Below, piece by piece: positions 13,801 to 56,073 of a stretch of 64,000 nucleotides of DNA. This DNA is from Aliidongia sp. (lineage in GTDB: Bacteria > Pseudomonadota > Alphaproteobacteria > ATCC43930 > CGMCC-115725), in assembly GCA_035539155.1 (NCBI GenBank), contig DATLIZ010000041.1:135776-199775 (forward strand). Direction: 5' to 3'. Below the pieces are notes generated by a model. That model ran no database searches. It was not told the DNA's origin and saw only the letters and a list, made by a program, of their open reading frames with translations. The stretch's first letter is position 1; each line of letters starts with the position of its first letter. The position numbers and the translations under genes are program-made.

Positions 13801-14090
13801 CCGGACGTCCAGCTCAGGGCTGTCCGGTCGATATGGATGGTCAGCAGATCGGCGCGGGCATTGAGGTAGGCGACCACCGCCGGGGTCAGCCAATTGACCT
13901 CGACCGGACCCAGCTCCAGCCGCAGCATGAGCAGCACCCCCGCCAGCAGCACGGCCGCGAGCAGGCCGCCGACAGCTTCGACCAGCAGGACGAACGGACG
14001 GAAGCGGCGCTTGCGCGGCGGCGTAGGCTCCGGCGGCGTCTCGTCTTCCTCGAGCGCCCGCCAATCCTCGCTCTTGCTGTCGCCCTTCAC
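10836..14090 (-). CDS. YhdP/AsmA-like large envelope protein (DUF3971 family)
   Basis: 1084-aa ORF starting at GTG with an AGGAAA RBS. It has an N-terminal TM helix (FVLLVEAVGGLLAAVLLAGVLLML) and a long predicted beta-rich body; the C-terminus (NFRMGGPIDDPKITVNPLSTL) resembles the AsmA/YhdP C-terminal region. Confidence 0.6.
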   Translation of the reverse strand: MKGDSKSEDWRALEEDETPPEPTPPRKRRFRPFVLLVEAVGGLLAAVLLAGVLLMLRLELGPVEVNWLTPAVVAYLNARADLLTIHIDRTALSWTSGRSTIDLVGSDIRIEDPAGIQIIAVPKLSISLSLHALLRGGIAATRIAVIGPALHLVRNEAGELGVDLGAGTPSAVSEPALAEPPPPLKALLATFAGKREPGAPISYLNQISILRANFTVDDKALGVAWQLSDAELDLTRLTEGVEADLSATIGLGRSTARAYGHFHYDATTRQLAFSTSTDGVDPAKLAEALPAAFAPMKELALPLSAGFGGTLDLAGGQVGPMTVRIDGGAGALIDPHLAGGRLSVTSAGLEAQFDPAEGKLTLGTLRLDLGGPVVAVTGMATKLPPDLLSGGMPSGPVDIAGNVAVRDLPLERLAAIWPPGLSDHAHDWIAANLTVGAIEELHADIGFDLTPGAADKPMQLQRLSGGMNVRNGTIQYMRGLPRIEGADARVGFAPDKLDFTLTSGRLKGLSISSGLVTIDQFGAPFERMTIDLALQGPTRDVLTVLDTKPLSYGKAMGIDVATVEGAVDGTLHFQFPLKNALSFAEVDYGAKAQLTDLAIGKAAFGHDLTAGTMALALDPQKLTLQGNAKIGDVPTELSMRQRLSGTAPPRTEVRAKAVLDDAARQRFNADPLPDRVHGPVATEMLYDDLDGHHNRAVLGLDLAGAAMSIDEFGWQKAPGAAAHADLTLITTDGMLNRIEGLSLKAPDLDLKGGLDFADGKLARADLSRLHVGRTEAVLTVTHQDEPWRIGMHGPVIDMAKMVDRLDKQKDDKPGADKGPAVVLELQGDRVILGTDRELKNVQLSAAVADHTLAAGSLNAAFDKAGKVSFRLDHVEDGGRFALATDDYGALMRLADITDSVHGGNLTVTGDSKPAPEGRRFTGHVEGKDYRFVGAPFMVRLLSLASFASIANLMTGDGIPFTTLKGDFELYDHKLALNHARAYGGAMGVNIDGSIDLGANTLSLDGLLVPAYTLNSVLGNVPLLGDLLTGGEGGGVFSANFRMGGPIDDPKITVNPLSTLAPGMLRRLFLFDAPDPGGSPAPAKP

Positions 14091-14164
14091 CGCGTTTCCT
14101 TGCGGCCCGGCCGCGCCGGCGCTACCAGTGGTGCCGCTATGAGTGACGCAGGCCGCGCGGGATC

Positions 14165-17667: not shown

Positions 17668-18470
17668 TGACGCTGCCGGCGACGCTCGGCGCCGGTGCCG
17701 CGGCAGTGCTGGAGACGGCACAGCCGGCGGACAAGGTGGCGCTCAGCCACGATATCGCCGCGGCCTGGCGCGCGGGATCGTTGCCGCTTGGCGACGGCCC
17801 GCCGCCGCCCGATCGCCCCGCCCGTCCACAGCACCCGGCCCTGCTGCTGCCGCGCGACATGCCGAAGCGGCGCTCGGCCGGCAGCCTGGCGAGCCGGATC
17901 GCCCTGCTCCACGCGCTCGCCCATATCGAGCTCAATGCGCTCGACCTCGCTTGGGACCTGATCGCCCGCTTCGGCGCGGACCTGCCGCAGGGCGGCCATG
18001 GCGATTGGGTCCGCGTCGCCGACGAGGAGGCGACCCATCACGCGCTGCTGGCCGAAAGGCTGGCCGCCCTCGGCGCCGCTTATGGCGATCTGCCGGCCCA
18101 TGACGGGCTGTGGCAGGCGGCGGAGGCAACTTCGCACGATCTCCTCGCCCGGCTCGCGGTCGTGCCGTTGGTGCTGGAAGCGCGCGGCCTCGACGTGACG
18201 CCGCCGATGATCGCGAGCCTGGAACAGGCGGGCGATGCCGAAAGCGCTGCCGTGCTGCGGCGGATCTACCGGGACGAGATCGGCCATGTCGCGATCGGGC
18301 GCCGCGCCTTCGAGCGCCTGTGCGCCGTGCGCGGCCTCGACCCGGCATCGACCTATCAGGAACTCGTCAGGCGCCACTTCAAGGGCAAGCTCAAGCGCCC
18401 CTTCAACACGAGCGCGCGCGACGAAGCCGGGCTCGAATCAGGCTTCTATGAAGCGCTGGCCGATATCTGA
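17667..18470 (+). CDS. DUF455 ferritin-like domain protein
   Basis: 267-aa protein with the HIELNALDLAWD ... DEIGHVAIG pattern typical of DUF455. Its start overlaps the bcp stop by 1 nt. Confidence 0.7.
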   Translation: MTLPATLGAGAAAVLETAQPADKVALSHDIAAAWRAGSLPLGDGPPPPDRPARPQHPALLLPRDMPKRRSAGSLASRIALLHALAHIELNALDLAWDLIARFGADLPQGGHGDWVRVADEEATHHALLAERLAALGAAYGDLPAHDGLWQAAEATSHDLLARLAVVPLVLEARGLDVTPPMIASLEQAGDAESAAVLRRIYRDEIGHVAIGRRAFERLCAVRGLDPASTYQELVRRHFKGKLKRPFNTSARDEAGLESGFYEALADI

Positions 18471-18496
18471 CCCATCATCGAGAGCAAGATCGACAT

Positions 18497-19027
18497 ATGC
18501 CATCCGTTCCGATCCTGGAAACACCGCGCCTACGCCTCCGCAGCCACGAGAAGACCGATCTCCCGACCTATCTGGCGATGCGGGCCCATCCGAACGTGTT
18601 CCGCTTCACCAGCGGCCGCCCTTTCACGCAGGAAGAGGCCTGGCAACGGATAATCATCTCCGTCGGGCAGTGGCTGCTGTCGGGCTTCGGGGTTTGGGCT
18701 ATCGAGGATAAGGCCTCGGGCGATTTCATCGGCGAGCTCGGCTTCAACGATGCGCGCCGGGACGGGCTCGCCTCGACCCACGGCATCCCGGAAGCGGGTT
18801 GGCTGCTGGCGGCGGACAGGCACGGCAAGGGCTATGCGACCGAAGCCGTGCGGGCGATCCATGAATGGGGCGACGCCCATTTCGCCGACGGACGCACCGT
18901 CTGCGCGGTGCGGGTCGGCAACCAGGCCTCGATCCGCCTGGCGGAAAGGATCGGATATCGCCTCAAGGAAGAGACTGTCTATCGCGAATTGCCCGTGCTT
19001 TTGTTCGAGCGCAACCGGCCTCTTTGA
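18497..19027 (+). CDS. GNAT family N-acetyltransferase (RimJ/RimL-like)
   Basis: 176 aa. TPRLRLR N-terminus and an acetyl-CoA-binding-like segment (HGKGYATEAVRAI). Confidence 0.8.
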   Translation: MPSVPILETPRLRLRSHEKTDLPTYLAMRAHPNVFRFTSGRPFTQEEAWQRIIISVGQWLLSGFGVWAIEDKASGDFIGELGFNDARRDGLASTHGIPEAGWLLAADRHGKGYATEAVRAIHEWGDAHFADGRTVCAVRVGNQASIRLAERIGYRLKEETVYRELPVLLFERNRPL

Positions 19028-19082
19028 CCGCGTAGAGGCATGTTCGAACAGAGACGTCCGATACCTAGCTCCGGGAGCGACC

Positions 19083-19994
19083 ATGGACCCGCTGCAGAAG
19101 CTGAACCAACTCCGCGCCGATCACGATACCGATCGGCCCGGCACGCTGGCCGCCCTTGCCGAGCTGGCGCTCACCCTGGACGAGGAGCTCGGCGCCTACG
19201 CTCAGCTCGTCAACCATGTCGTCGGCGACGAGGAGCGCGACCGTCCGCTGGCCGTTACCCTGCTGAGCCGGCTGCTGGCGCGCAAGCCCGAGGACGAGAC
19301 CGGTCTCGTCGGTGCCCATCTGGCGGTGGCGCTGTTCCTCAACGGCGACAGCACCGAGGCGCTCGAAGCCGAGCTCGCCGCCCGCCACCCCGGCGTGCCG
19401 ATCATCGGCTGGATCCGGCTGCGCTGTGCCGAATCCCTGGTCCAGGCCAAGGAGATGGAGGCGGGCGCCGTGCTCGTGACGGCGACATTCGACGGCCCGC
19501 TGCTGGCGGGAACGGCGCATGCCAGCAATTTCGACCGGCCGATCGCCGTCGCCTGCAACAATCTGGCGACCGGCCTGTTCGAGGCGCCGATGATCAGCCG
19601 GATCGGGGCCGAGGCGATCGAGCGGACGGCCCTTTTGAGCCGTACCTGCTGGATCCGCTGCGGCAGTTGGGTCCAGCATGAGCGCGCCGATTATCTCCTG
19701 GCTCTCGCCTATAACGCGCTGCGCCGCCACGATCTGGCCGAGGATGCCGCCCGCCACGGGCTCGATCTCATCGCGGCGCATGAGGGCGAAGCGGTCGATC
19801 GCGCCTTCCTCACCGTCGAACTGGCCCTGGCACTGGACCGGCTCGGCCGCGCCGAGGAAGCGGCGGCGGCGCGGCAGGAGGCGCTGCAGCTGGCCGAGCC
19901 CTTCCGCGAGAATGCCTTCCTCGCCCCCTGGTTCGACGGGCAATTCGCTCGGATCGACGGCGAATTGCCCGTGCTCGTCAGTCCGGAGGCTTGA
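19083..19994 (+). CDS. hypothetical protein (helical, TPR-like)
   Basis: MDPLQK start with a GGGAGCGA RBS; about 303 aa; no recognisable catalytic motif. Upstream in-frame ORF sequence (18750..) overlaps the GNAT gene and is not used. Confidence 0.5.
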   Translation: MDPLQKLNQLRADHDTDRPGTLAALAELALTLDEELGAYAQLVNHVVGDEERDRPLAVTLLSRLLARKPEDETGLVGAHLAVALFLNGDSTEALEAELAARHPGVPIIGWIRLRCAESLVQAKEMEAGAVLVTATFDGPLLAGTAHASNFDRPIAVACNNLATGLFEAPMISRIGAEAIERTALLSRTCWIRCGSWVQHERADYLLALAYNALRRHDLAEDAARHGLDLIAAHEGEAVDRAFLTVELALALDRLGRAEEAAAARQEALQLAEPFRENAFLAPWFDGQFARIDGELPVLVSPEA

Positions 19995-43592: not shown

Positions 43593-44682
43593 TCTCCGTG
43601 GTGATTGAGTAGGGCGCGAACTCGGCCGCGATCCGGTCGAGCGTCAGCAGCCCGACGCACGGCATGGCCCCGGTCCGATCGATCTCGCCCGCGAGCATGA
43701 GGCGGATGAGCGCGAGCGCCGGCAGGGTCGGGATGACCGGCCCGTCCCCCGCCTCGGCGACGAGCGTCCAGCGCGCCATGCGCCGCGCCCCCTCCTCATC
43801 GAGCCCGGCCGCCTCGACCACCATGCCGCCGCGATCGCTGCCGCAGCCGATGAGGAGATCGGCGAAGCGCCGCGCGAGGCCGCTCAAGGGCGCCAGCGAG
43901 GGCAGCAGCCCGAGCCGCACCGGCCACCCCGCCGCCGCGAGCCCCAGATGCAGCAGGCCGAGCTCGAGCCCGGCACGGAAGATCACCGTGTCGCGCACTG
44001 CGAAGCGCGCGGGCATGAGATCGAGATCCGGGGTCTCGCACAGCGACAGCCAGCGCCGGCCCAGCCCCTCGATCGACGGCCGCGCGAGCAGGCTCCAGCC
44101 GGGTGCCGTCTGCCAGCGCCCGTCGCGGAACAGCCGAACCGGCCGGCCGACATAGGAGAGGATCGCGCGCACGACCGCCTCGCCGCGCGGCGCCCGGTTG
44201 CCGGGCGCGATCGCGATTTCGATCCGGTCGACGCGCCGCCAGCCTTGCACCAGCGCGTCGGCCACGGCGTTGGAGAGGGCCGGCGTCGAGCTGGCGCCGG
44301 TGACGGCGAGCACGCCCCGCGCCTTGGCCGCTTGGTCGAGGGTCGCGAAGCCCGCGACGAAATCGCGCGCATCGGCGAGATCGACATAATGCATCCCGGC
44401 CGCGATCGCGGTCGCTGCGGCGCCGAAATCGGCGCCCTGAAACGGTCCGGCGGCATCGACCAGGATGCCGGCCCCGGTGGCTTCGAGCAGGGGGGCCGTG
44501 AGCGCGCGCCGATCGAGGCGGAGCGCCGAGGCGCGGCCGGGCGGCAGGCTGGCGGCGAACCGCTCCGCCGTCGCCAGCGTCCGGCCGGCGATGACGATGG
44601 CACAGCCGGTGCTGGTGACCAGCCCTTGGACGAGTCTGCGGCCGAATGCACCGGTACCGCCGATAATCAGGATCTTTTGCAT
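43567..44682 (-). CDS. saccharopine dehydrogenase-like NAD(P)-binding protein
   Basis: MQKILIIGGTGAFGRRL Rossmann N-terminus; 371 aa. Confidence 0.7.
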   Translation of the reverse strand: MQKILIIGGTGAFGRRLVQGLVTSTGCAIVIAGRTLATAERFAASLPPGRASALRLDRRALTAPLLEATGAGILVDAAGPFQGADFGAAATAIAAGMHYVDLADARDFVAGFATLDQAAKARGVLAVTGASSTPALSNAVADALVQGWRRVDRIEIAIAPGNRAPRGEAVVRAILSYVGRPVRLFRDGRWQTAPGWSLLARPSIEGLGRRWLSLCETPDLDLMPARFAVRDTVIFRAGLELGLLHLGLAAAGWPVRLGLLPSLAPLSGLARRFADLLIGCGSDRGGMVVEAAGLDEEGARRMARWTLVAEAGDGPVIPTLPALALIRLMLAGEIDRTGAMPCVGLLTLDRIAAEFAPYSITTEITTDPARS

Positions 44683-44742
44683 TCTTGCCGCGCCGAATCC
44701 CGGCCCCTATGGTTGCGTCGCCCGTTGAAGGACCCTTTGCCC

Positions 44743-45504
44743 ATGACCTCGTTCCGCCGCCTGGCCCTCTTCGCCGCGCTCGCCGCCGGCCTGCTGCCGA
44801 CCCTCGTGCGCGCCGCCGACCCCGCGCCCGCTCTCGCCCCGGCGCAGCAGGATCAGGTCAATCAGATGATCCATGATTATCTGCTGAGCAATCCCAAGGT
44901 GCTGATCGAGGCGCTGGAGAAGGCCGAGGCCGAGATGCGCGCCCAGGAAAAGGCGAAGGCGCAGGAAGCGGTCGGCGCGCGCCGCGAGGAGCTGAACAAC
45001 GACCCGACCTCGCCGGTGATCGGCAATCCCAAGGGCGACGTGACCATCGTCGAGTTCTTCGATTACCGCTGCCCCTATTGCAAGAGCTCGGCGCCGATGA
45101 TCGAGACGCTGCTGGCCGAGGATAAGGGCGTGCGCCTGGTGCTGAAGGACTTCCCGATCCTCGGCAAGGAGTCGGTCTTCGCCTCGCGCGTGGCGCTGGT
45201 CACGGCCAAGCACGGCAAATATCCGGATTTCTACAAGGCGATGTTCGCGCTGAAGACGCAAGTGACCGAGGAATCGACGCTCGATGTGGTGAAATCGATC
45301 GGGCTCGATCCGGCTGCGGTGAAGCAGGAGATGGAAGCCGCCGACATCGATGCGATCCTGAAGCATAACTACGATCTCGGCCGCGCGCTCGGCGCCGACG
45401 GCACGCCCGCCTTCGTCATCGGCGATTCCGTCACCTCGGGTGCGCTTACCGGCGAGGAACTGCGCGGAAAGATCGCAGCCCTGCGCGCCAAGCAGCCGAG
45501 CTGA
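44743..45504 (+). CDS. DsbA family thiol:disulfide oxidoreductase
   Basis: Signal peptide and a CPYC active site (FFDYRCPYCK); 253 aa. Confidence 0.85.
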   Translation: MTSFRRLALFAALAAGLLPTLVRAADPAPALAPAQQDQVNQMIHDYLLSNPKVLIEALEKAEAEMRAQEKAKAQEAVGARREELNNDPTSPVIGNPKGDVTIVEFFDYRCPYCKSSAPMIETLLAEDKGVRLVLKDFPILGKESVFASRVALVTAKHGKYPDFYKAMFALKTQVTEESTLDVVKSIGLDPAAVKQEMEAADIDAILKHNYDLGRALGADGTPAFVIGDSVTSGALTGEELRGKIAALRAKQPS

Positions 45505-45612: not shown

Positions 45613-48600
45613 ATGAAATTGCGCCGTCTTGCCGTCAGCCTCGCCGCCCTGTGCACGGTCCTGGCCGGCCCCGCCCTGGCCGAAGGCTATTTCCGCTATC
45701 CGACGCTGGCCGGCGACACGGTGCTGTTCACCGCCGAGGGCGATCTGTGGAGCGTGCCGCTGGCCGGCGGCCGCGCCGCCCGCCTCACCACCCACCCGGC
45801 CGAGGAGACCAATGCCGTGGCCTCCCCCGATGGCAAGGAGGTCGCCTTCAGCGCCGCCTATGACGGGCCGATCGAGGTCTATGTCATGCCGGTCGCGGGC
45901 GGCCGCCCCCGCCGCGTGAGCTTCGAGGGCAATCGCAGCGTCGCCGTCGGCTGGACGCCCTCGGGCGAGGTGCTCTATTCGACCCAGAGCGCCAACGGCC
46001 CGTCCGACCAGCGCGTCATCGTCGCGGTCGATCCCAAGAGCCTGAAGCGCCACACGCTGCCGCTCGCCGACGCCAATGACGCCGCCGTCAGCCTGGACGG
46101 CAAGAGCGTCTATTTCACCCGCTTCGGCCTCGCCGTCTCGAACGACAATGCCCGCTTCTATCGCGGCGGCCTGTTGTCGCGGCTCTGGCGCTTCGGCCTC
46201 GACGGCGCGCACGAGGCCGAGCCGCTGCCGGTCACCGACAAGGCCAACGACCGCCGGCCGATGCCGCTCGGCGACCGGGTCTATTTCCTCTCCGACCGCG
46301 ACGGGCCGGATAATCTCTGGTCGATGAACGCCGATGGCGGCGACCGGCGGCAGCTGACCCATTACACCGATTTCGGCATCCGCAGCGCCAGCCTGGCGCA
46401 GGGCAGGATCGTCTATCAGCTCGGCGCCGACCTGCATGTCTACGACGCCATCACCGACACCGACAAAACGCTCGCCATCGACCTCGCCTCGGATTTCGAC
46501 CAGGAGCGGCCGCACGCGGTCAAGAACCCGCTCGATTTCTACGAGGCGGCGCATTTCGCCCCCGATGGCGAGCATGTCGCCGTGACCGCCTTGGGCCATG
46601 TGGCCCTGATGGGCGTCGGCCCGCTGCGTCGGGTCGAGGTCGCGACCCGGCCCGAAAGCCGCGCGCGCGGCGCGGTCGTCAGCCCGGACGGGAAATGGGT
46701 CTATGCCTTCTCCGAGACCGGCGACGCCAACGAGATCTGGCGCTTCGCCGCCGACGGCAGCCCCGACCGCAAGCAGCTGACCAAGGATGCGGCGGGCTTC
46801 CGCACCGACCTCTGGCCCGCGCCCGACGGCAAGAGCCTGGCGCACGCCACCGCCGATGGAAAACTGTTCCTGCTCGATCTCGGCAGCGGCGACAATCAGC
46901 TGATCGACACCGCCACCGGCGCCGATCTCGACACGGTCGTCTGGTCCGCCGACAGCAAGCATCTGGCCTTCGTCCGCTCGGATTCCGATGTCGAGCGTGC
47001 CCAGCTCTTCCTCTACGAGCCCGCGACCAAGACCAAGCAGCGGCTGACCACCGACAAGTATGAATCCAAGGCGCCCGCCTTCACGCCCGACGGTAAATGG
47101 CTCTATTTCCTGTCTGACCGCCATTTCGAGAGCCGCAACCACGCGCCCTGGGGCGACCGCAACCTCGGCCCCTATTTCGACCGGCGCGCCCAGATCTACG
47201 CGCTGGCGCTGCAGGCGGACGAACGCTTCCCGTTCCTTCCGAAGACCGAGCTGACGCAGGACGACAAGAAAGACGCGGACAAGAAAGACTCCGACAAGAA
47301 GGACGGCGACAAGGACAAGAAGGACGATAAGAAGTCCGAGGACAAGAAGGCCGACGACAAGCCCGGCCACGATGCCGGCCCCGCCATCGAGTGGAACGGC
47401 CTCGCCGACCGGCTTTACGAGGTGCCGATGGCACCCGGCAATTTCGAGGCGCTGGAGACCGACGGCAAGCGCCTCTATGTCCTCGACGATGACGGCGGCG
47501 GCGAGCACAAGGTGCTGAAGACGCTGCCGATCGAGGACAAGGATCCGAAGCCCGTCGATTTCCTCGGCAACGTCCGCGACTTCACGCTCTCGGGCGACCG
47601 CAAGAAGATCTTCGTCCGCCGCTGGGCGCCCAGCGACAAGATCGGCGACATGCTGATCCTCGACGCCGGCGCCAAGGCCCCGGGCGACCTCGACCCGGCC
47701 AAGGTGCGCACCGACGGCTGGACGCTCGAGGTCGATCCCCGCGAGGAATGGCGCGAGATCTTCGCCGATGCCTGGCGGCTCCACCGCGATTTCTTCTACG
47801 ACGCCAAGCTCCACGATCTCGACTGGGCCAGGGTCCGGGCGAAATACGCGCCGCTGGTCGAGCGCGTGACCGACCGCAGCGAGCTGAACGACGTGCTGGG
47901 CCAGATGATGGCCGAGCTGGGCGCGCTCCATTCCCAGATCATCCCGGGCGACCTGCGCAAGGCCCAGGATGGCGGCCAGCCGGGCTTCCTCGGCGCCCGG
48001 CTCGAGCGCGAGGCCGAGGGCTATCGCATCGCCCATATCTTCCGCACCGACCCCGAGCTGCCGAACGACCGCGCGCCGCTGGCCCGCCCCGGCACCGACG
48101 CCAAGGAGGGCGATCTCGTCACCGCCGTCAACGGCCGCCCGGCGACCGACGGCGACGACATCGCCCTGCTGCTCGCGAACCAGGCCGGCCAGCAGGTGCT
48201 GCTGACGCTGAAGCGCGGCGACAGGCAGGTGAAGACGATCGTCACCGCCATCGACGCCCGCGGCGAATCGAGCCTGCGCTACAGCGATTGGGAGGAGGAG
48301 CGCCGCGCCAAGGTGCTGGCCGCCGGCCAGGGCAAGGTCGGCTATCTGCATCTGCGCGCGATGGGGCCCGAGGACATCGCCACCTTCGCCCGCGAATTCT
48401 ACGCCCAGTACGACCGCGACGCGCTCATCATCGATGTCCGCCGCAACAATGGCGGCAATATCGACAGCTGGGTGATCGAGAAGCTGCTGCGCCGCGCCTG
48501 GGCCTTCTGGAAGCCGCGCCTCGGCACCCGCCACGGCACCAACATGCAGCAGACCTTCCGCGGCCATCTGGCCGTGCTGATCGACGAGCGCACCTATTCC

Positions 48601-48915
48601 GACGGCGAGACCTTCGCCGCCGGCATCAAGGCGCTGAAGCTCGCCCCCCTCATCGGCCGCCGCACCGCCGGCGCCGGCGTCTGGCTCAGCGACAATGTGA
48701 GATTCGTCGACCGCGGCTCCGCCCGCGTCGCCGAGGACGCGCAATACGCCATCGGCACCGGCGAATGGCTGGTCGAGGGCAAGGGGGTGGAGCCCGACAT
48801 CGATGTCGAGAACCCGCCCAACGCGACGTTCAAGGGCGGCGACGCACAGCTGGAGGCGGCGATCAAGCTGCTGCAGGAGGAGATGGTGAAGGAGCCGGTT
48901 AAGGCGCTGCGGTAG
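45613..48915 (+). CDS. tricorn protease homolog (beta-propeller + PDZ + S41 peptidase)
   Basis: 1100 aa with a signal peptide. Repeated PDG/SPDG WD-like propeller blades are followed by a C-terminal S41-type region. An unusual KD-rich insertion lies at residues ~550-585. Confidence 0.8.
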   Translation: MKLRRLAVSLAALCTVLAGPALAEGYFRYPTLAGDTVLFTAEGDLWSVPLAGGRAARLTTHPAEETNAVASPDGKEVAFSAAYDGPIEVYVMPVAGGRPRRVSFEGNRSVAVGWTPSGEVLYSTQSANGPSDQRVIVAVDPKSLKRHTLPLADANDAAVSLDGKSVYFTRFGLAVSNDNARFYRGGLLSRLWRFGLDGAHEAEPLPVTDKANDRRPMPLGDRVYFLSDRDGPDNLWSMNADGGDRRQLTHYTDFGIRSASLAQGRIVYQLGADLHVYDAITDTDKTLAIDLASDFDQERPHAVKNPLDFYEAAHFAPDGEHVAVTALGHVALMGVGPLRRVEVATRPESRARGAVVSPDGKWVYAFSETGDANEIWRFAADGSPDRKQLTKDAAGFRTDLWPAPDGKSLAHATADGKLFLLDLGSGDNQLIDTATGADLDTVVWSADSKHLAFVRSDSDVERAQLFLYEPATKTKQRLTTDKYESKAPAFTPDGKWLYFLSDRHFESRNHAPWGDRNLGPYFDRRAQIYALALQADERFPFLPKTELTQDDKKDADKKDSDKKDGDKDKKDDKKSEDKKADDKPGHDAGPAIEWNGLADRLYEVPMAPGNFEALETDGKRLYVLDDDGGGEHKVLKTLPIEDKDPKPVDFLGNVRDFTLSGDRKKIFVRRWAPSDKIGDMLILDAGAKAPGDLDPAKVRTDGWTLEVDPREEWREIFADAWRLHRDFFYDAKLHDLDWARVRAKYAPLVERVTDRSELNDVLGQMMAELGALHSQIIPGDLRKAQDGGQPGFLGARLEREAEGYRIAHIFRTDPELPNDRAPLARPGTDAKEGDLVTAVNGRPATDGDDIALLLANQAGQQVLLTLKRGDRQVKTIVTAIDARGESSLRYSDWEEERRAKVLAAGQGKVGYLHLRAMGPEDIATFAREFYAQYDRDALIIDVRRNNGGNIDSWVIEKLLRRAWAFWKPRLGTRHGTNMQQTFRGHLAVLIDERTYSDGETFAAGIKALKLAPLIGRRTAGAGVWLSDNVRFVDRGSARVAEDAQYAIGTGEWLVEGKGVEPDIDVENPPNATFKGGDAQLEAAIKLLQEEMVKEPVKALR
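47261..47363 (+). repeat. degenerate 9-nt-periodic repeat (gacaagaaR) encoding a DKKD/DKKDS low-complexity insert in the tricorn-like protease
   Basis: Protein segment DDKKDADKKDSDKKDGDKDKKDDKKSEDKKADDK. Confidence 0.6.
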
Positions 48916-49003
48916 GGGGTGGACGGTAGGTAGTGAGTTCAGATGTCACGACAAGGACCCATTTCTTCTTGCGTGCTCACGGCCCGTATTCTATGTCCGC
49001 ACA

Positions 49004-49468
49004 ATGCCGTCTACTGCTCCCTCTCACCAGCCACACCGCCCGGATTTCTCGGACGTTACGCCTGGACGTCGGCGCAATATGCAGGCAAACGTTGGCAAGA
49101 ATACAAAGCCGGAAATGTTTATCCGGAGGATTCTTCATGCGATGGGATACCGCTATCGTCTGCATGTCAAAGGAATGCCGGGGAAACCCGACATTGTCTT
49201 CTCGGCACGCCGCAAGATCGTGGAAATTCGTGGTTGCTTCTGGCATGGGCACGGATGCTTCCCGATCGGACAGTTACCGAAAAGCCGTACTGAATATTGG
49301 TCTCCGAAAATAGCCGGCAATCAAGCTCGGGATGCCCTAAATATCGCTGCCTTACGCGCGGATGGATGGGAAGTCCTAGAGCTGTGGGAGTGCAGAATAC
49401 GAGCCGCGCCGGACGACGTTGCCAACGAGCTTGTGGCGTTCCTGGGTTCTACTAGCGTACAGGGTTGA
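49004..49468 (+). CDS. vsr: very-short-patch repair endonuclease
   Basis: Motifs GKPDIVF, RGCFWHGHGC, PKSRTEYWSPKIAGNQARD and GWEVLELWEC align with E. coli Vsr. It sits adjacent to an m5C methyltransferase. Confidence 0.85.
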   Translation: MPSTAPSHQPHRPDFSDVTPGRRRNMQANVGKNTKPEMFIRRILHAMGYRYRLHVKGMPGKPDIVFSARRKIVEIRGCFWHGHGCFPIGQLPKSRTEYWSPKIAGNQARDALNIAALRADGWEVLELWECRIRAAPDDVANELVAFLGSTSVQG

Positions 49469-49546
49469 AATCGGAAAGCCGCACGGCGAAATGTTCATAA
49501 ACGGGCCGGAAACAAGAATTTTTTGGAATCCAGACCAGTGGGCCGC

Positions 49547-50572
49547 TCATATCGGGTAGGTCGGCAGCGAATCCAGAATCAGCTGAGCTGTGTCTCGGGG
49601 ACTGAGGGCCATGTAAAGCTGATCAATCGCCTTGCTCGGCGTCCCACCGGCGAGAAGCGATATCATCGACGCCGCCTTGTACCGGCCCGCAACATCACTG
49701 CCTTTCGTCGTCTCAAGATGGGCGTGAAATTTAATGGCAGGCCCGCGGAGCACATAGCCGATGATGAATTTTAGGACGTTCGCCTCGAACAAGGCCTGAT
49801 ATAGACGGTCGCTGCGAGTACTGGTCTTGACAGCGATAGCAAACAGGAAGTTCCGACCTTCGAGCGATGATTGGATGTCTTGCCATGCTGTTTCCAAGCG
49901 TTGCTGACTGGCGTACGATAAGTCTGACAATGGCGTCATGAAATTCTGATAGCCGGGCGGCATGGGGTCCGGCATTCGCAACCCAAGAATATCCGGAGTA
50001 CTCAGCTTAAGCTCCATACCATCCAATTGGAGGGCTTGATCGAACGCCGCATATGCCGCACGGGCCGATTGATTGAGCAGCTTGGTAGTATCGGCACCGC
50101 GAGACATCTTCACGATTGCGATCTTCCGGGCAGGCGTCGGGATCGCGTGGGGCGGCTGAGTGAATGTAGTGGATGACCACACTCCTGTATCCATGAAGAC
50201 ATTCCAGGCCGCAGCGGCGTTCCAGAGCGCAGCAGCCTCCATTATCTCGTATATATCGCCGTCCACCTTGGCTGCTTGCTGTTTCGAAACCCGGAAACCC
50301 GTGGCGAAGTTGATTTCTCCGGCCAGTTTCACATTGTGCAGGGCCTGCATCCTGTAAACCCGGGAATGTCTCGACGGGTCGGGATCACCTTCAGACCCGG
50401 GAACAAACTCACCAAATGCGCAATCCATCATCCTTTGTTGTACTATCTGAAACTCAGTTTCCCGGTCTTTGACCCGGTTGACCCGCGTGTCGATCAAGCA
50501 GCCCGTTCCAGCAGCATGGCAAGCAGTGCAGATAGCGGTTCTTGTTGCGAGATCGGGGAACTCGTAGGGCAT
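49547..50572 (-). CDS. putative type II restriction endonuclease (family not recognisable)
   Basis: 341-aa ORF whose ATG overlaps the TAA of the upstream C-protein gene (TAATG). It is divergent from an m5C MTase and next to vsr, which is the canonical C-R / M layout. No PD-(D/E)XK or HNH motif could be assigned by eye; there is a CxxCH..C cluster near the N-terminus. Confidence 0.45.
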   Translation of the reverse strand: MPYEFPDLATRTAICTACHAAGTGCLIDTRVNRVKDRETEFQIVQQRMMDCAFGEFVPGSEGDPDPSRHSRVYRMQALHNVKLAGEINFATGFRVSKQQAAKVDGDIYEIMEAAALWNAAAAWNVFMDTGVWSSTTFTQPPHAIPTPARKIAIVKMSRGADTTKLLNQSARAAYAAFDQALQLDGMELKLSTPDILGLRMPDPMPPGYQNFMTPLSDLSYASQQRLETAWQDIQSSLEGRNFLFAIAVKTSTRSDRLYQALFEANVLKFIIGYVLRGPAIKFHAHLETTKGSDVAGRYKAASMISLLAGGTPSKAIDQLYMALSPRDTAQLILDSLPTYPI

Positions 50573-50823
50573 TAAGTTCCCCCCGCCCCTGTGCTCTGTT
50601 TCCGCGCGATCTCGCGGGCAGTCGCAAAAATTACATCAAGGTCTGCACCGAGTGCGTCGGCAACCTGTTGAAGGATTTTCAGCGAAGGATTACGACGGCC
50701 ACGTTCGATTCCGGATACGTAGGTCCGATCCAAAGACGCTCGATCGGCGAGGTCTTCTTGGCTCAATCTGAGGAGCGTCCGGTGCTGCCGCACCGAGGCG
50801 CCGAAATATCTGGCAAGATCCAA
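50572..50823 (-). CDS. restriction-modification controller (C) protein, XRE-type HTH
   Basis: 83 aa; LSQEDLADRASLDRTYVSGIERGRRNPSLKILQQVADALGADLDVIF closely follows the C.PvuII/C.AhdI family pattern (LSQEELA..RTYIS.IERG.RN). It has a TTG start and is translationally coupled to the downstream ORF. Confidence 0.8.
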   Translation of the reverse strand: MDLARYFGASVRQHRTLLRLSQEDLADRASLDRTYVSGIERGRRNPSLKILQQVADALGADLDVIFATAREIARKQSTGAGGT

Positions 50824-50884
50824 CGGCGACTCGACGAAACAATTTGGACAAGTTTCGTAGGCTCACTGGAAGGCAGCGACCACG

Positions 50885-50940
50885 GACTATGAGTCACTTG
50901 GAAAAATATTTTTCCCAAGATAGCTAGTCATCCGGTGACT
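50885..50940. promoter_or_regulatory. candidate C-box operator/divergent promoter region (GACTATGAGTC; 23-bp AT-rich palindrome CTTGGAAAAATATTTTTCCCAAG; AGTCATCCGGTGACT)
   Basis: GACT-N3-AGTC resembles C-box half-sites. It is located ~60-115 bp upstream of the C gene within the 239-bp divergent intergenic region shared with the MTase gene. Confidence 0.45.
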
Positions 50941-51062
50941 GCCCACAGCCAACGTCGACGCCGAGATTGCGGCGCCAAAAACGAGCATATAAGGTTTAGA
51001 CCATCGGAGGGATGGGACTCTTTAGGCTCGCCACTCCGCCGGTGCCAAGGAGGGCGAACGCG

Positions 51063-52325
51063 ATGAGAAAATTGCAGGCGGTTTCACTGTTCGCCGGGTG
51101 TGGCGGTTTCTGCGAAGGCATGGAACTGGCCGGGATCGAAGTGAAAGTCGCCGTCGAGTGGGATAAGTATTCTTGCGAGACTTATCGCGCAAATTTCCCC
51201 CGGACGCCGCTATTCGAAGGCGATGTACACGATTTCCTTGCCGGGGATGGCGATGCGCACCGAAAGGAATACGGGCTGGGGGCTATCGATCTCGTGTTCG
51301 GCGGACCACCATGCCAGGGCTATAGCCAAATCGGCCCTCGCGATCTCACGGACGACCGCAACGAGCTTTACCTCCAATATGCACGAGTCGTGGGTACGCT
51401 GAAGCCACGCATGTTTCTTATGGAAAATGTTCCGAATCTGCTGCTGATGAAAAAGGGACATTTTAAGGACGCCATCCTGAAGCACTTCGCAAGTATGGGC
51501 TACAGCAACACAACGTTCTTGAAGGTCAGCGCGGCCGATTTCGGCGTGCCTCAGACCAGGGAACGAGTATTCTTTTTTGGGAGCCGGGATGACATCGATA
51601 TACCCGTCGATCTGCGCGCGTATGCCAATGGCGTGCTTGAAAAGCTAAAGGTCGCCAAACCCGTGACGGTTTGGGAGGCAATCGGTGATCTGCCGTCCGA
51701 AGTCGTCCACTCCGGCAAGACAATGCCATACCCCGCTGCTAAGAACTTATCTTCGTTCCAGAAGCTGATGCGTCTCGATGAAAGCCTAGCCCCCTACTCA
51801 CAGGCTACCAAACGGAAGCGCGCTCTCGGCAAGGCCAAAGCTGAGCTGCACAATCATCACACCAAGGAAATGCTTAGCAAACGGGCGCATCTTATTTCGT
51901 TCTTAAAGCCCGGCATGAAGGCTGACTCACTACCAAAGGAAATATGGGATGGCGCACGCCCCGAAAAGTGGCGCCGGCTACACCCGGATTTGCCAAGCTA
52001 CACGATCCTGGCACAGATGCACCGTGATTTGAGCGAATGGGTTCACCCGAAACTTGAGCGTTGGATCACCGTGCGTGAGGCGGCACGCCTGCAGTCCTTC
52101 CACGACGGCTTCATTTTCAAATCTTCCGAATGGCAGATGTTGAAGCAAATTGGAAACGCTGTCCCCCCACTCCTGGCATTCGCGGCAGGCAAAATGGTGA
52201 CCGCTATCCTTGAGGCAGCTGACGGGGCGGTAATCGCCGATCTAATGCCCGCGCAAAAACTGGTGCCGATCCAGCGGCGACAAGTGCGCAGCAGCCGGCG
52301 CATCACTGAGGATGCTGCGCTATGA
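51063..52325 (+). CDS. dcm: DNA (cytosine-5)-methyltransferase
   Basis: Motif I SLFAGCGGF, motif IV GGPPCQGYS (the PCQ catalytic Cys), motif VI ENV, and motifs QTRERVFF and GNAV. Start at MRKLQAVSLF after an AAGGAGGG RBS. Confidence 0.9.
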   Translation: MRKLQAVSLFAGCGGFCEGMELAGIEVKVAVEWDKYSCETYRANFPRTPLFEGDVHDFLAGDGDAHRKEYGLGAIDLVFGGPPCQGYSQIGPRDLTDDRNELYLQYARVVGTLKPRMFLMENVPNLLLMKKGHFKDAILKHFASMGYSNTTFLKVSAADFGVPQTRERVFFFGSRDDIDIPVDLRAYANGVLEKLKVAKPVTVWEAIGDLPSEVVHSGKTMPYPAAKNLSSFQKLMRLDESLAPYSQATKRKRALGKAKAELHNHHTKEMLSKRAHLISFLKPGMKADSLPKEIWDGARPEKWRRLHPDLPSYTILAQMHRDLSEWVHPKLERWITVREAARLQSFHDGFIFKSSEWQMLKQIGNAVPPLLAFAAGKMVTAILEAADGAVIADLMPAQKLVPIQRRQVRSSRRITEDAAL

Positions 52326-53590
52326 CCGGTATAGATGCCACAGAAGACGAGATCAAATCGGCGGCCGAAGATGCTGCCGCCGAGAGCGAAGCTAAGCCAG
52401 AGACGAGTGCCGCAGCACTGGCTGACACCGCCCGCGCCGCCGACTGGTTTGAGGGTGAGCAGGAGGAAGATGCTTCAGCGTCATTCAAAGACTACGAGGT
52501 CACCGCATCGCCCAACGACTTTAATATCACCACGATCGTTAACTTCGTTAAGTCCGGTGCGGTGAAGATCCCCGGGTTTCAGCGAAATTATGTGTGGGAT
52601 ATTAAGCAGGCTAGCAGGCTGATCGAATCCATCTTGATTGGTCTGCCAATTCCACAGATCTTCCTCTACCAGGAAGCCAAGAACAGCTTCCTCGTGGTTG
52701 ACGGTCAGCAGCGCCTGATGTCGATTTATTATTTCGTTGAGGGAAAGTTTCCTAAGGTCTCTAAGCGGCCTAACTTGCGCAGGATCATGTCCGAGAACGG
52801 CAAGTTGCCAGACGCAATCCTCGGGGACGACCAGTACTTCACAAAATTCAATCTTCAGCTGGCTTCCAAGACAGGCCCGTCATCTCGTTTCCATGGGCAG
52901 AACTTCGCGACGCTCGGAGAGAATCAGATGGACTTCAATCTCCGAACGATCCGAAACGTGGTTATCAAACAGAATTCGCCGCAGGAAGAACCAGACACTT
53001 CCGTGTTCGAGATTTTTAACCGACTAAACACCGGTGGCGTGAACCTCCGCCCGCAAGAGATCCGATCCAGTTTGTATCACTCTGACTTCCTAAACGCCCT
53101 CAACCGAGTGAATCTCTCTCCGATATGGCGCAAGCTTATAGGGCTGCCAGACCCAGACTTACATGACAAGGACGTGGAGATCCTATTGAGGGTGTTTGCG
53201 CTCGTCGCCGATGGAGACCGATATACGGAGCCTATGAGCACGTTCTTGAATGGATTCGCTAAAAAGGCCCGTTTGACGCCAGCGCCAGTCATCGAATACA
53301 TGGAAAGGCTGTTTGCAGCATTCTTCGAACGAGTAAAGGATATTCCAAGCGAGAGCTTCGCTGTAACGAAATCGGGCCGCTTCAATATCGCCGCATTCGA
53401 AGGCATTTTCCGCGCCGTTTGCACGCCTGCGTTCAAGGCAAATAACCTCGAAATCCCGACAATGACCGCTGCCCAGTTGCTGGCCGTACGCGATGATCCG
53501 GAATTTCTTGCTGCCACTCAGCAGGGGGTCGGACGTACTACTTTCGTCAAACAGAGGGTTGAACGGGCCACGGCGATACTAGGGGTATAA
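52322..53590 (+). CDS. DUF262 domain protein (ParB/Srx-like NTPase-nuclease fold, DGQQR motif; GmrSD N-terminal-like) lacking a DUF1524/HNH C-terminal domain
   Basis: 422 aa with FLVVDGQQRLMSIYYF (the DGQQR signature). Its start ATG overlaps the dcm stop (ATGA). The C-terminal 150 aa is helical with no His-Me finger motif. Confidence 0.8.
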   Translation: MTGIDATEDEIKSAAEDAAAESEAKPETSAAALADTARAADWFEGEQEEDASASFKDYEVTASPNDFNITTIVNFVKSGAVKIPGFQRNYVWDIKQASRLIESILIGLPIPQIFLYQEAKNSFLVVDGQQRLMSIYYFVEGKFPKVSKRPNLRRIMSENGKLPDAILGDDQYFTKFNLQLASKTGPSSRFHGQNFATLGENQMDFNLRTIRNVVIKQNSPQEEPDTSVFEIFNRLNTGGVNLRPQEIRSSLYHSDFLNALNRVNLSPIWRKLIGLPDPDLHDKDVEILLRVFALVADGDRYTEPMSTFLNGFAKKARLTPAPVIEYMERLFAAFFERVKDIPSESFAVTKSGRFNIAAFEGIFRAVCTPAFKANNLEIPTMTAAQLLAVRDDPEFLAATQQGVGRTTFVKQRVERATAILGV

Positions 53591-53595
53591 CTCCG

Positions 53596-54219
53596 GTGAG
53601 CGTCGCTGCGATCGAAGCTTTCTACCGCGGGAACGTCGAGCTGATTGAGTTCCTTCTCGCGAACGAGCAACTGTCCTATGCTTCTGATGCGGCTGATAAT
53701 TTTAGGCGATCCCTCGTCATTGCTATTGGAAGCTTTTTCGAGGGAGAGATCTCCGACATTGTGCGCCAGCTTCCATTCCACCATGCTAACGGAAACGCGT
53801 TCCTTACTTCGTTGATCGAGAGAAAGGCGGTGAGCCGGCAATACCATACGTATTTTGATTGGGAAAACTCGAGCGCTAACAGTTTCTTCTCGATGTTCGG
53901 GGCCGAATATAAAGCAGCATGCCAGAGGAAGCTCAACGACGAGCCCTCATTCAAATCGGCCGTCCAAGCGTTCCTAAGCCTTGGGGCAACCCGCAATCAA
54001 ATCGCTCATAAAAATTATGTCTCGTTCAATGTAGATAAGACGCCTGAGGATATAGTTAAAGAGTTCCGACAGGCGTTAACATTTGTAGAATACGTGCGAG
54101 CAAGCCTATTACCACCCAAACAGCCAAATTCAGCTGAGCAATCTGGTTACCCGGCAGGGGGTGCGCAAAATAATGCTGGTGGTTCCAGAGATTCTGAATC
54201 TGGCAGGATATCACCATAA
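53596..54219 (+). CDS. HEPN-domain protein (Rx4H motif: GATRNQIAH), MAE_28990-like
   Basis: 207 aa with a GTG start 6 nt after the DUF262 stop (AGGGG RBS). All-alpha composition with a conserved Arg-x4-His in the C-terminal half, as in HEPN RNases. Confidence 0.65.
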   Translation: MSVAAIEAFYRGNVELIEFLLANEQLSYASDAADNFRRSLVIAIGSFFEGEISDIVRQLPFHHANGNAFLTSLIERKAVSRQYHTYFDWENSSANSFFSMFGAEYKAACQRKLNDEPSFKSAVQAFLSLGATRNQIAHKNYVSFNVDKTPEDIVKEFRQALTFVEYVRASLLPPKQPNSAEQSGYPAGGAQNNAGGSRDSESGRISP

Positions 54220-54333
54220 GGACGCTCGTCTTGGCATCTCGTGATCTCGTTAGTAGTTCATTCAGAAAGTGGGCGCCCGCAGCAACCCGACGGGCAGTGC
54301 CTACGACAGCGGAATAGACTGGCTTCACACCCC

Positions 54334-54975
54334 CTACCCCGCATCCCCCTGCCGCATCGGATGCGCCCGCGCGAACGCGTCCAGCCCCAGACACTCCCGC
54401 CCGATTCGCCTCACCGTCGGATAGGCCTCCATCGCCACCCCCAGATCCTCGGCCATCACCAGCTGCGGCACGAGGCAGATGTCGGCGAGGCCGGGCTCGT
54501 CGCCCTGGCAGAAGCGGCCGGTGCGGTCGTCCTCGGCCAGCAGCGCCTCGCAGGCGGCGAGGCCGTCCGCCGTCCAGTGCCGGCACCAGGTCTCGACCGT
54601 CGGCTTGTCGTGGCCGAGCGGGGTCCTGAGATAGCGCATGACGCGGAGTGTCACCAGCGGGTGGATATCGGAGGCCAGGAGCTGGGCCAGGCCGCGGACG
54701 CGCGCCCGGTCGCCCGGATGGCCGGGCAGGAAGGGCGGGTTCGGGTGGGTCTCGTCGAGATATTCGATGATCGCGAGCGACTGGCCCAGCACCTCGCCGC
54801 CCTCATCCTCCAGCACCGGCACGAAGCCCTGCGGGTTGAGGTCGAGGAATTCCGGCGCCCGGTGCGCGTTCTGGCGCAGGTCGAGCGAAGCCGTCTCGTA
54901 CTCGATGCCCTTCAAGTTGAGCGCGATGCGGACGCGGAAGGCGGCCGGCGAGCGGAAATAGCTATGGAGCTTCAC
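54334..54975 (-). CDS. maiA: maleylacetoacetate isomerase (zeta-class GST)
   Basis: 213 aa with a MKLHSYFRSPAAFRVRIALNLKG N-terminus and zeta-GST motifs. Confidence 0.85.
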   Translation of the reverse strand: MKLHSYFRSPAAFRVRIALNLKGIEYETASLDLRQNAHRAPEFLDLNPQGFVPVLEDEGGEVLGQSLAIIEYLDETHPNPPFLPGHPGDRARVRGLAQLLASDIHPLVTLRVMRYLRTPLGHDKPTVETWCRHWTADGLAACEALLAEDDRTGRFCQGDEPGLADICLVPQLVMAEDLGVAMEAYPTVRRIGRECLGLDAFARAHPMRQGDAG

Positions 54976-54987
54976 CCCGCCCTCGCC

Positions 54988-56073
<1,086 letters not shown>

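Follow-up and report, generated by a model that had tools for sequence, protein, structure and literature searches.

A recurrent restriction–modification and DUF262–HEPN defence cassette between two convergent genes of an Aliidongia chromosome

A six-gene block between two convergent stop codons

We analysed a 64,000-nucleotide stretch of DNA (the window) from the alphaproteobacterium Aliidongia sp. (GenBank assembly GCA_035539155.1, contig DATLIZ010000041.1, positions 135,776 to 199,775), in which a block of low guanine–cytosine (GC) content at 48916–54333 fills the interval between the stop codons of two convergent genes, a tricorn-like protease and maiA (maleylacetoacetate isomerase). The block holds six genes: vsr, encoding a very-short-patch T:G mismatch endonuclease; a Type II restriction endonuclease (R) and a controller protein (C); a 5-methylcytosine (m5C) methyltransferase (M); and a DUF262 and a HEPN protein. 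An initial annotation, made from the letters alone, had proposed an abrupt lower-GC island of defence genes only at 48930–54240. Pfam, PADLOC and NCBIfam confirmed the content, the gene identities and the strands, and the island stands, with true borders slightly wider than first drawn. All six open reading frames (ORFs) are intact, catalytic motifs included.

The compositional change is sharp at both ends. In 500-bp windows the GC content is 0.67–0.71 up to ~48.7 kb, 0.49–0.59 from 48.75 to 54.25 kb and 0.70 beyond. The 5,418-bp block has a GC content of 0.542, against 0.662 for the remaining window; 5.4-kb windows outside it average 0.663 (standard deviation 0.021, minimum 0.612), which places the block ~5.8 standard deviations below the mean, far outside the local distribution. 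GC content at third codon positions (GC3) is 0.52–0.64 in the six block genes and 0.81–0.92 in dsbA, the protease, maiA and hppD (0.88–0.92 in the flanking genes); the block genes lie 0.3–0.4 below those of the host. The non-coding ends of the block (82 bp on the left, 164 bp on the right) are foreign too, because their GC content of 0.524 resembles that of the island and not that of native intergenic DNA (0.64–0.76).

Relatives with an empty site were found by a protein homology search (5.8 billion proteins) and gene-context look-ups. The protease matches a protein from a metagenome-assembled genome (MAG) of Aliidongia sp. at 100% identity; its nearest relatives, P0002 (on contigs L002 and L003) and P0003 (on contig L004), share 79% and 77% identity with it. 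These three contigs share with the window the order dsbA/scsC, protease, convergent maiA–hppD and marR, with hppD next after maiA; the NHL-repeat gene comes next in L002 and L003 and is absent from L004. The two stop codons are separated by 5 bp in L002 and L003 (TAG-CGGCA-CTA) and by 14 bp in L004 (TAA-GAGCGATCGCCGGA-CTA), so the protease–maiA junction, which the initial annotation had suggested comparing, is empty in the two nearest relatives. By blastn, window and relatives are colinear for ~8 kb to the left and 4–5 kb to the right of the block (40.8–48.9 and 54.3–58.5 kb for L002); homology with L002 and L004 ends at 48908–48909 and restarts at 54339. The left edge of the insertion is the protease TAG stop (48913–48915).

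A separately assembled Logan contig (L001; SRR8440673) is 100% identical to window positions 47606–55066 (7.46 kb) and crosses both junctions, which makes an assembly or MAG chimera unlikely. With this identity over this length it represents the same organism, and we rejected it as a second occurrence. More distant protease relatives (L005–L007, 65–68% identical) have lost the synteny, have different neighbours and are uninformative on the empty site. A scan of genome contigs for the protease C-terminal pattern returned 51 pattern matches and no true relative, and an exact-sequence look-up of the protease returned nothing.

Signs of an integrase-driven element were absent, as the initial annotation had stated: ARAGORN found no tRNA in the whole 64-kb window, the ORFs scanned from dsbA to the NHL-repeat gene include no integrase or transposase, and a repeat search found no direct repeats of the target-duplication type flanking the block. 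Rfam gave no match within 44–58 kb. Of the features of a classical genomic island, the block has the atypical composition and the absence from the syntenic site of relatives; it has no integrase or transposase, no tRNA or att target and no flanking direct repeats, the only direct match being 10 of 11 positions of the 11-nt border sequence described below. A sigma-70 promoter consensus scan (no promoters) and a terminator consensus scan were both uninformative.

Other short GC dips (0.50–0.59 over 500 bp) occur in the window at ~2.5–3.0, 4.25–5.0, 6.25–7.0, 27.25–28.0 and 57.0–57.75 kb. They are far shorter than the island and either coincide with ordinary genes or fall between them (di-haem oxidoreductase-like, ferritin-like, carboxylesterase, anmK, NHL-repeat protein); the 57-kb dip is within the NHL-repeat gene, which is conserved in L002. 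Upstream of the protease, the longest ORF of the DsbA/ScsC-like gene (43948–45504) encodes 518 amino acids, compared with 251 in its L002 orthologue; its N-terminal half is probably over-called, since Pfam domains are confined to residues 300–509.

Restriction–modification genes and the DUF262–HEPN pair

The R protein is a homologue of SgrAI of Streptomyces griseus, a Type IIP/IIF enzyme of the Cfr10I/NgoMIV/Bse634I fold that recognizes CR/CCGGYG. It scores 92.5 bits against PF07832 (cut-off 27), and SgrAI is its best match in the Protein Data Bank (PDB; E = 9e-46 over residues 19–329, ~310 residues aligned), followed by Bse634I (9e-8). In SgrAI, Arg31 contacts the outer G, Lys96 is the determinant for the YR step and the RSDR segment reads CCGG (PMC2532715). 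When our alignment was mapped onto that description, the R motifs GDIYEI, STPDI, AVK and RSDR aligned to SgrAI Glu103, Asp188, Lys242 and RSDR, so that R has the family's catalytic E...D...K residues as well as its segment for CCGG recognition, R-(S/P)-D-R. Equivalents of the SgrAI-specific Arg31 and Lys96 are also kept in the alignment, as R36 and the second K of 'aak'. Because the catalytic residues, RSDR and both of these equivalents are conserved, R is predicted to be, most likely, a CR/CCGGYG isoschizomer. R may also show SgrAI-like filament (run-on oligomer) behaviour. A C protein is present and an m5C-type methyltransferase is adjacent, as in the SgrAI system; unlike in that system, R is clearly diverged, the host is an alphaproteobacterium and not an actinomycete, and vsr and DUF262–HEPN genes are linked.

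C.SgrAI is itself among the listed C-protein-dependent restriction–modification (R–M) systems (PMC2632904). In the block, the stop codon of the C gene and the start of R overlap by 1 nt, and two C-boxes lie in the divergent C/M intergenic region (Table 1). Both boxes are kept across five aligned cassettes amid otherwise diverged sequence, and in contig L011 box 2 is a perfect palindrome, GAGACTCATGAGTCTC. In contig L016, box 1 reads GGACTATAAATCC and box 2 GAGGATCATTAATCCT, and the C protein is only 66% identical; because both boxes are altered together where the C protein has diverged, they fit operators of that protein. A small helix-turn-helix (HTH) gene overlapping R, with conserved upstream palindromes, is the layout of C-controlled R–M systems; binding itself is predicted, and the boxes would act in activating C–R and modulating M. 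Two further palindromes in the C/M intergenic region, CTTGGAAAAATATTTTTCCCAAG and AGTCATCCGGTGACT (50897–50919 and 50926–50940), the second with a CCGG core, are not conserved in other cassettes.

M is a full-length PF00145 m5C methyltransferase, divergent from the C–R operon and 240 bp from it, as is expected of a cognate enzyme. Its longest ORF runs from 51012; a GGAGG (51049–51053) stands nine bases before an ATG at 51063, motif I (LFAGCGGF) follows directly, and the real start is most likely at 51063, to judge from these signals. Vsr scores above the curated threshold of its family, and its gene accompanies M both in the window and in other carriers; in L001 the gene is called with an alternative start, at 49079. 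Vsr repairs the T:G mismatches that arise from deamination of m5C, as established for Dcm/Vsr.

In several other carriers an extra HNH_2 (PF13391) nuclease gene, matching PADLOC HNH models, stands between vsr and R. It encodes 94 amino acids in L008, where a 185-amino-acid ORF with no Pfam match adjoins it, and up to 312 amino acids elsewhere. The window cassette has no such gene, its vsr–R gap being only 78 bp.

Downstream of M lie a DUF262/ParB-like nucleoside triphosphatase (NTPase) gene and, after a gap of 5 nt, a HEPN gene of the RiboL-PSP family. The motifs PGFQR, DGQQR and NRLNTGG of the DUF262 protein are invariant in a 35-sequence alignment, and the HEPN R-x4-H motif (RNQIAH; RNxxxH) is kept in every aligned homologue. 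An AlphaFold2 model of the DUF262 protein (predicted local distance difference test score 77) starts with ~59 disordered residues, which are followed by a ParB-like core and a C-terminal half made up of helices only. Its best matches among solved structures are SspE (6jiv), BrxU (7p9k)/GmrSD and ParB CTPases; no nuclease fold was found among the structure matches, and DUF1524 gave no Pfam match at E<0.01. PDB sequence searches with either protein found no significant relatives, and both proteins are strong PHROG family matches.

Pairing of the two genes is strongly conserved. In 86 of the 87 DUF262 loci, tblastn places a HEPN homologue immediately after the DUF262 gene and on its strand; the loci span Proteobacteria, Cyanobacteria, Chlorobi, Acidobacteria, Chloroflexi, Verrucomicrobia, Bacteroidetes, Firmicutes, the candidate phyla radiation and one archaeon (a Methanothrix MAG). 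A 2013 note already places RiboL-PSP-HEPN 'in operon with ParB' (PMC3710099). The HEPN ORF of the window carries a low-complexity C-terminal tail of ~25 amino acids (54136–54219; AEQSGYPAGGAQNNAGGSRDSESGRISP) that is absent from all homologues (180–195 amino acids), and with it the reading frame extends past the conserved module into DNA peculiar to this locus.

Three known systems come close to this pair. PD-T4-2, described in Escherichia coli ECOR65 (Vassallo et al. 2022), consists of DUF262 and a PF18735 HEPN protein (PMC10952713) and defends its native E. coli strain against T4 (PMC9519451). The window pair has the same two genes, domains and order, adjacent and on one strand, and both hidden Markov model matches span most of the model length; the sequences are distant, and here the pair is joined to a Type II methyltransferase operon by an ATGA overlap, so that it is probably under the control of the M promoter and the C-boxes. 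Menshen (NsnABC) is the second: the DUF262 protein best matches NsnA (the model match covers residues 35–419) and has its architecture of a ParB-DUF262 domain with a helical DNA-binding part (PMC12065111). In Menshen, NsnA is followed by the ABC-ATPase NsnB and the inPIN-effector NsnC (PMC12065111). We rejected identity with Menshen since NsnB and NsnC are absent: HEPN follows the NsnA-like gene and the island then ends. With GmrSD, BrxU and SspE (DUF262–DUF1524) the protein shares the N-terminal ParB/DUF262 NTPase fold; unlike them it has no DUF1524/HNH domain, and the nuclease role falls to a separate HEPN protein predicted to target RNA. A GmrSD/BrxU-type Type IV restriction enzyme was likewise set aside, there being no DUF1524 match, an all-helical C-terminal half and no nuclease fold. 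On domain composition, and because the Menshen partners are missing, we file the pair as PD-T4-2-like. By analogy, the DUF262/ParB NTPase would be a DNA-sensing switch and HEPN an RNase effector.

Table 1. Features of the block and its borders in the window, and of the HNH_2 gene in other carriers (contig coordinates)
Feature	Coordinates	Strand	Evidence and remarks
Tricorn-like S41 protease (left flank)	45613–48915	+	Pfam Peptidase_S41, Tricorn_C1, PDZ_Tricorn; native; GC3 0.91
Left 11-mer GGTAGGGGGTG	48911–48921	+	Contains protease TAG stop
Left non-coding end of foreign DNA	48916–49003		GC 0.52; no homology to any other carrier
Degenerate tandem copy GGTAGGTAGTG	48925–48935		Follows left 11-mer
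vsr	49004–49468	+	Pfam Vsr 6e-23; TIGR00632 137.9 bits (cut-off 97.85)
R, Type II restriction endonuclease, SgrAI homologue (Cfr10I/Bse634I/NgoMIV family)	49547–50572	−	PF07832 3.8e-26; PADLOC REase_II 7.8e-48
C, controller protein (HTH_3), 83 amino acids	50572–50823	−	Pfam HTH_3 3e-15; PADLOC Control_protein 5e-16
C-box 1 GGACTATGAGTCAC	50884–50897		Palindromic GACT-N3-AGTC; ~60 nt upstream of C gene
C-box 2 GGGACTCTTTAGGCTC	51014–51029		~34 nt upstream of M start
M, C-5 cytosine DNA methyltransferase, 420 amino acids	51063–52325	+	PF00145 4e-64; PADLOC MTase_II 1e-115; TIGR00675
DUF262/ParB-like NTPase (GmrSD_N; PD-T4-2 gene A/NsnA-like)	52322–53590	+	PF03235 4e-32; PADLOC NsnA 1.6e-52, PD-T4-2_A 4.7e-38
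HEPN (RiboL-PSP family)	53596–54219	+	PF18735 1.3e-18; PADLOC PD-T4-2_B 1.6e-3; phrog_15536 3e-50
Third near-exact 11-mer copy GGCAGGGGGTG	54153–54163	+	Direct orientation to left copy
Right non-coding end of foreign DNA	54220–54333		No homologue elsewhere
Right inverted 11-mer GGTAGGGGGTG	54328–54338	−	Contains maiA TAG stop; register as on left
maiA (right flank)	54334–54975	−	TIGR01262 equivalog 255.7 bits (cut-off 171); native; GC3 0.92
HNH_2 gene, L008	6391–7236		
HNH_2 gene, L091	5005–5943		
HNH_2 gene, L093	5816–6403		
HNH_2 gene, L094	5276–6214		

Recurrence of the cassette and linkage of its two systems

The block is a recurrent six-gene cassette and not a unique assemblage. Carriers were found by a DUF262 homology search, context look-ups and a scan of Genome Taxonomy Database (GTDB) species representatives, which together revealed the cassette in at least six other alphaproteobacterial contexts at 70–76% nucleotide identity in coding sequence. 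Gene order and orientation are constant: vsr, sometimes HNH_2, R and C, and then the divergent M, DUF262 and HEPN. Mobility or replication genes lie near the cassette in five of these six contexts. It adjoins a tyrosine integrase, ParA, an nSTAND NTPase and IS66 (L008/L009); occurs with TrwB-like coupling proteins and DndB (L010); adjoins a P2 GPA-like (Phage_GPA) replication initiator in a Mesorhizobium MAG (L011); stands between a MobC-relaxase and a DDE transposase plus integrase in Xanthobacter autotrophicus (L092); and sits on a Rep3/ParA replicon with an integrase and MobA (L093/L094). The sixth copy (L091) follows the rpoA–rplQ operon, downstream of rplQ, and no such genes were identified near it or near the window copy. 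In a Paracoccus contig (L016), the R–M genes of the cassette are rearranged beside its DUF262–HEPN pair, and IS110 and a resolvase are nearby.

Module GC content is 0.535–0.61 in the carriers, equal to or below that of their flanks, and 0.540 in the window. The window module thus stays near the carriers' low end although the GC content of its host is the highest, which indicates no amelioration and argues for a recent acquisition, not an old one.

Our searches returned no close donor. Plasmids in PLSDB and phages in INPHARED, searched in distant mode, gave only short matches of 66–72% to single vsr, dcm or DUF262 genes, and unique stretches of the two non-coding ends had no exact match in the metagenome contigs scanned. 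Nothing credible came from a search of the ends for remnants of a donor backbone (blastn-short, and tblastx against all carriers), and the module borders of seven carriers have no shared terminal sequences or inverted repeats.

Further genes of interest accompany the cassette in some carriers. In L008, a protein of 1,177 amino acids with an nSTAND_NTPase5 domain (12554–16087) and an AAA_15/DUF2813 gene for an OLD/Gabija-like ATPase (17729–19669) lie downstream, and this integrase/ParA contig is a larger mobile defence island. On the plasmid-like contigs L093 (14767–17091) and L094 (14227–15270), HTH and Peptidase_M78 genes lead into a Multi_ubiq/Prok-E2/JAB-ThiF operon, which encodes a bacterial ubiquitin-like conjugation system. 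In L016 (Paracoccus sp. SM22M-07), a toxin gene with HEPN/RES-NTD1 and RES domains (11942–13096, minus strand) follows DUF262–HEPN directly.

M, DUF262 and HEPN form one tight plus-strand operon, and the M stop and DUF262 start overlap as ATGA in the window and in L008, L010, L011 and L092. An m5C methyltransferase lies no more than 3 kb away at 12 of the 14 loci whose DUF262 protein is at least 55% identical to that of the window, compared with 3 of the remaining 73. At least three architectures with an m5C methyltransferase exist among the DUF262 loci, some with unrelated methyltransferases. In L013–L015 (Bradyrhizobium, Inquilinus), an unrelated m5C methyltransferase and vsr accompany a conserved uncharacterised ORF in the nuclease position. 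Its product, 344–363 amino acids long and encoded between vsr and the methyltransferase (L013 7068–8102, plus strand; L015 2181–3272, minus strand), is 30% identical between L013 and L015 (E = 1e-42), has no Pfam or PADLOC match and is a candidate for an undescribed family of Type II restriction endonucleases.

This linkage could reflect functional cooperation, or a stable defence-island pairing with a swappable R–M part. A stronger form of cooperation would make M, DUF262 and HEPN a three-gene unit in which DUF262 reads the m5C placed by the co-translated M as 'self' and gates the HEPN RNase. The ATGA overlap, kept at 70% nucleotide identity in several carriers, and the linkage counts (12/14 versus 3/73) speak for such a unit, and a similar idea has been floated for Menshen (PMC12065111). 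We nevertheless consider it improbable, because the methyltransferases of L013–L015 seem to have a nuclease of their own and PD-T4-2 works as two genes. The same conserved putative nuclease gene in L013 and L015 weakens the proposal that DUF262–HEPN is the restriction partner of an orphan methyltransferase. If the three-gene unit were real, DNA cutting by the SgrAI-like R and abortive infection through RNA cutting would both be licensed by a single methyltransferase.

Origin and meaning of the insertion

The block is very probably a horizontally acquired, self-contained composite defence cassette, usually the cargo of mobile elements, that was captured 'naked' between the convergent protease and maiA stops. 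The cassette would normally travel on alphaproteobacterial plasmids and integrative or mobilizable elements, and here it would have replaced the few base pairs between the two stops in an Aliidongia-like chromosome. The m5C methyltransferase would mark host DNA and the SgrAI-like nuclease would cut unmarked DNA at the predicted site CR/CCGGYG, with the C protein, acting on two boxes, presumably delaying R expression and tuning M. Vsr would repair T:G mismatches produced by deamination of the system's own m5C. The PD-T4-2-type pair, apparently co-transcribed and translationally coupled with M, would contribute the ParB/DUF262 NTPase with its helical DNA-binding domain as a putative DNA sensor and the HEPN RNase as a putative effector, probably causing abortive infection or growth arrest; it probably covers phages that escape the Type II enzyme, for example those with hypermodified cytosines.

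Both borders carry an 11-nt inverted repeat that the initial annotation had not described. Two exact copies of GGTAGGGGGTG lie inverted at the island borders, and the third copy, GGCAGGGGGTG, is the only other sequence in 64 kb that departs from the 11-mer at one position at most; it sits at the point where similarity to other cassettes stops, within the HEPN tail peculiar to the window. The consensus of the three is GGYAGGGGGTG. A symmetric, in-register extension of at least 8 extra bases has a chance of ~6e-4 between random native TAG/CTA pairs, and an 11-nt inverted repeat has a chance of ~1.3e-3 in unconstrained pairs of 41-nt segments. The short spacers of the relatives hold small palindromes, GCTATAGC and GCGATCGC, and our preferred account of the repeat is an ancestral spacer that was a short palindrome split by the insertion; the repeat may also have arisen by chance. 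We rejected the segment 54164–54327 as an ancestral structured spacer or a miniature inverted-repeat transposable element bounded by the 11-mers: its GC content is island-like (0.524), it has no significant fold (z-score +0.97) and the window holds no other copy.

As for the mechanism, we tentatively favour illegitimate or microhomology-mediated recombination, by which a piece of a carrier element, linear or excised, joined the chromosome at a short palindromic spacer; post-segregational killing through the R–M system would then have stabilised it. The initial annotation had found the block consistent with an 'old or recombination-mediated acquisition': an old event is disfavoured by the absence of amelioration, the 0.3–0.4 deficit in GC3 and the intact ORFs, and recombination, of the illegitimate kind, agrees with the mechanism favoured here. 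Earlier work described R–M units that had inserted with no mobility gene linked to them, some of them bearing inverted repeats (Furuta, Abe & Kobayashi 2010; PMC2853133). The block resembles them in being present or absent at a syntenic site, in having no integrase or transposase and in its short inverted repeats at the borders; it differs in having neither a long nor a short target duplication and no terminal inverted repeats of at least 20 bp, and in carrying a second defence system and vsr as passengers. Its junction type matches none of the published R–M insertion classes exactly.

The border repeat could instead mean that the cassette is a non-autonomous, transposon-like unit with short terminal inverted repeats, GGTAGGGGGTG, mobilised in trans by a transposase or recombinase gene located elsewhere, whose ends supply new stop codons to both flanking genes. 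The repeat falls right at the foreign/native boundaries in one register to both TAG stops, at the low chance frequencies given above; the near-copy marks the inner right end of the module; the last sense codons within the repeat differ from those of the relatives (an extra CGG in the protease, GAA to GGG in maiA); and R–M units flanked by inverted repeats are documented (PMC2853133). We judge this quite unlikely all the same. The empty-site sequence is not duplicated, and the repeat measures 11 nt, against 26–65 nt accompanied by 8-bp duplications in the published units; these ends are missing from all six other carriers, which have no end in common either, only these three copies of the 11-mer occur in 64 kb, and such codon differences are expected anyway at ~80% nucleotide identity. 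That the block is what remains of a larger integrated plasmid or integrative element, whose backbone (integrase, att sites, replication and transfer genes) was later deleted to leave the addictive R–M system and its linked neighbours, is unlikely too, even though mobility genes accompany the cassette in five of the six other contexts and an integrase lies directly beside HEPN or one gene beyond it in L013 and L093. R–M systems resist loss through post-segregational killing, which also counts for such a residue. We found no pseudogene fragments, att-like repeats or other remnants of it, however, and the only foreign non-coding DNA, 82 bp and 164 bp, is unlike any carrier backbone; neither flanking gene is damaged, and each stops at its ancestral stop or one codon away from it, which would take two highly exact deletions.

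Highly improbable, finally, is that the block is ancestral and was precisely deleted in the relatives, or that it is a chimera of assembly or binning. The window does come from a MAG, and the available empty sites are those of fairly distant relatives (77–79% protease identity). Set against this are the GC3 deficit relative to neighbouring genes, the presence of the cassette on plasmids and mobile elements of other genera, the short spacers (5–14 bp) of two different relatives and the independent Logan assembly that crosses both junctions.

Capture of a mobile-element cassette between the two stops, the reading we prefer, has points against it as well. The closest empty-site relatives are only 77–79% identical in the protease, which limits them as guides to the ancestral spacer and to the age of the insertion. 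No donor above 76% nucleotide identity was found in the plasmid, phage, genome and metagenome collections, and simple illegitimate recombination leaves the 11-nt border repeat unexplained unless the ancestral spacer was palindromic. The PD-T4-2_B profile match is weak (1.6e-3), and gene A scores better against Menshen NsnA than against its PD-T4-2 model (1.6e-52 versus 4.7e-38). The recognition site, the function of the C-boxes and anti-phage activity are predictions from homology. In the window outside 48916–54333, moreover, CRCCGGYG occurs 57 times against ~19 expected; RCCGGY (386 versus 176) and GCCGGC (197 versus 77) likewise exceed expectation from base composition. The predicted target is over-represented rather than depleted; the host DNA shows no avoidance of it, and many chromosomal sites would have to be kept methylated. 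This is neutral for a recent acquisition and lends no support to the predicted specificity.

The island is real, and a fairly ordinary horizontally acquired defence island. Both kinds of defence system and the repair gene were known already, as were R–M-centred islands without integrases. What is modestly new is that these six genes recur together as an alphaproteobacterial cassette, that the cassette stands 'naked' precisely in the gap between two convergent stops, and that a PD-T4-2-type pair is fused into the operon of a Type II methyltransferase. Modestly new too are the 11-nt border repeats, which could, improbably, mark an undescribed way of moving defence cassettes into the gaps between convergent genes. 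None of these results overturns current understanding. The predicted new SgrAI isoschizomer may interest the field of filament-forming nucleases, and the cassette offers a tractable case in which to ask whether Type II R–M and DUF262–HEPN systems cooperate. The locus provides a clean case of a defence cassette passing from plasmids and other mobile carriers into a chromosome without a recombinase or target duplication, and it supports the view of R–M-centred modules as mobile, self-stabilising units.

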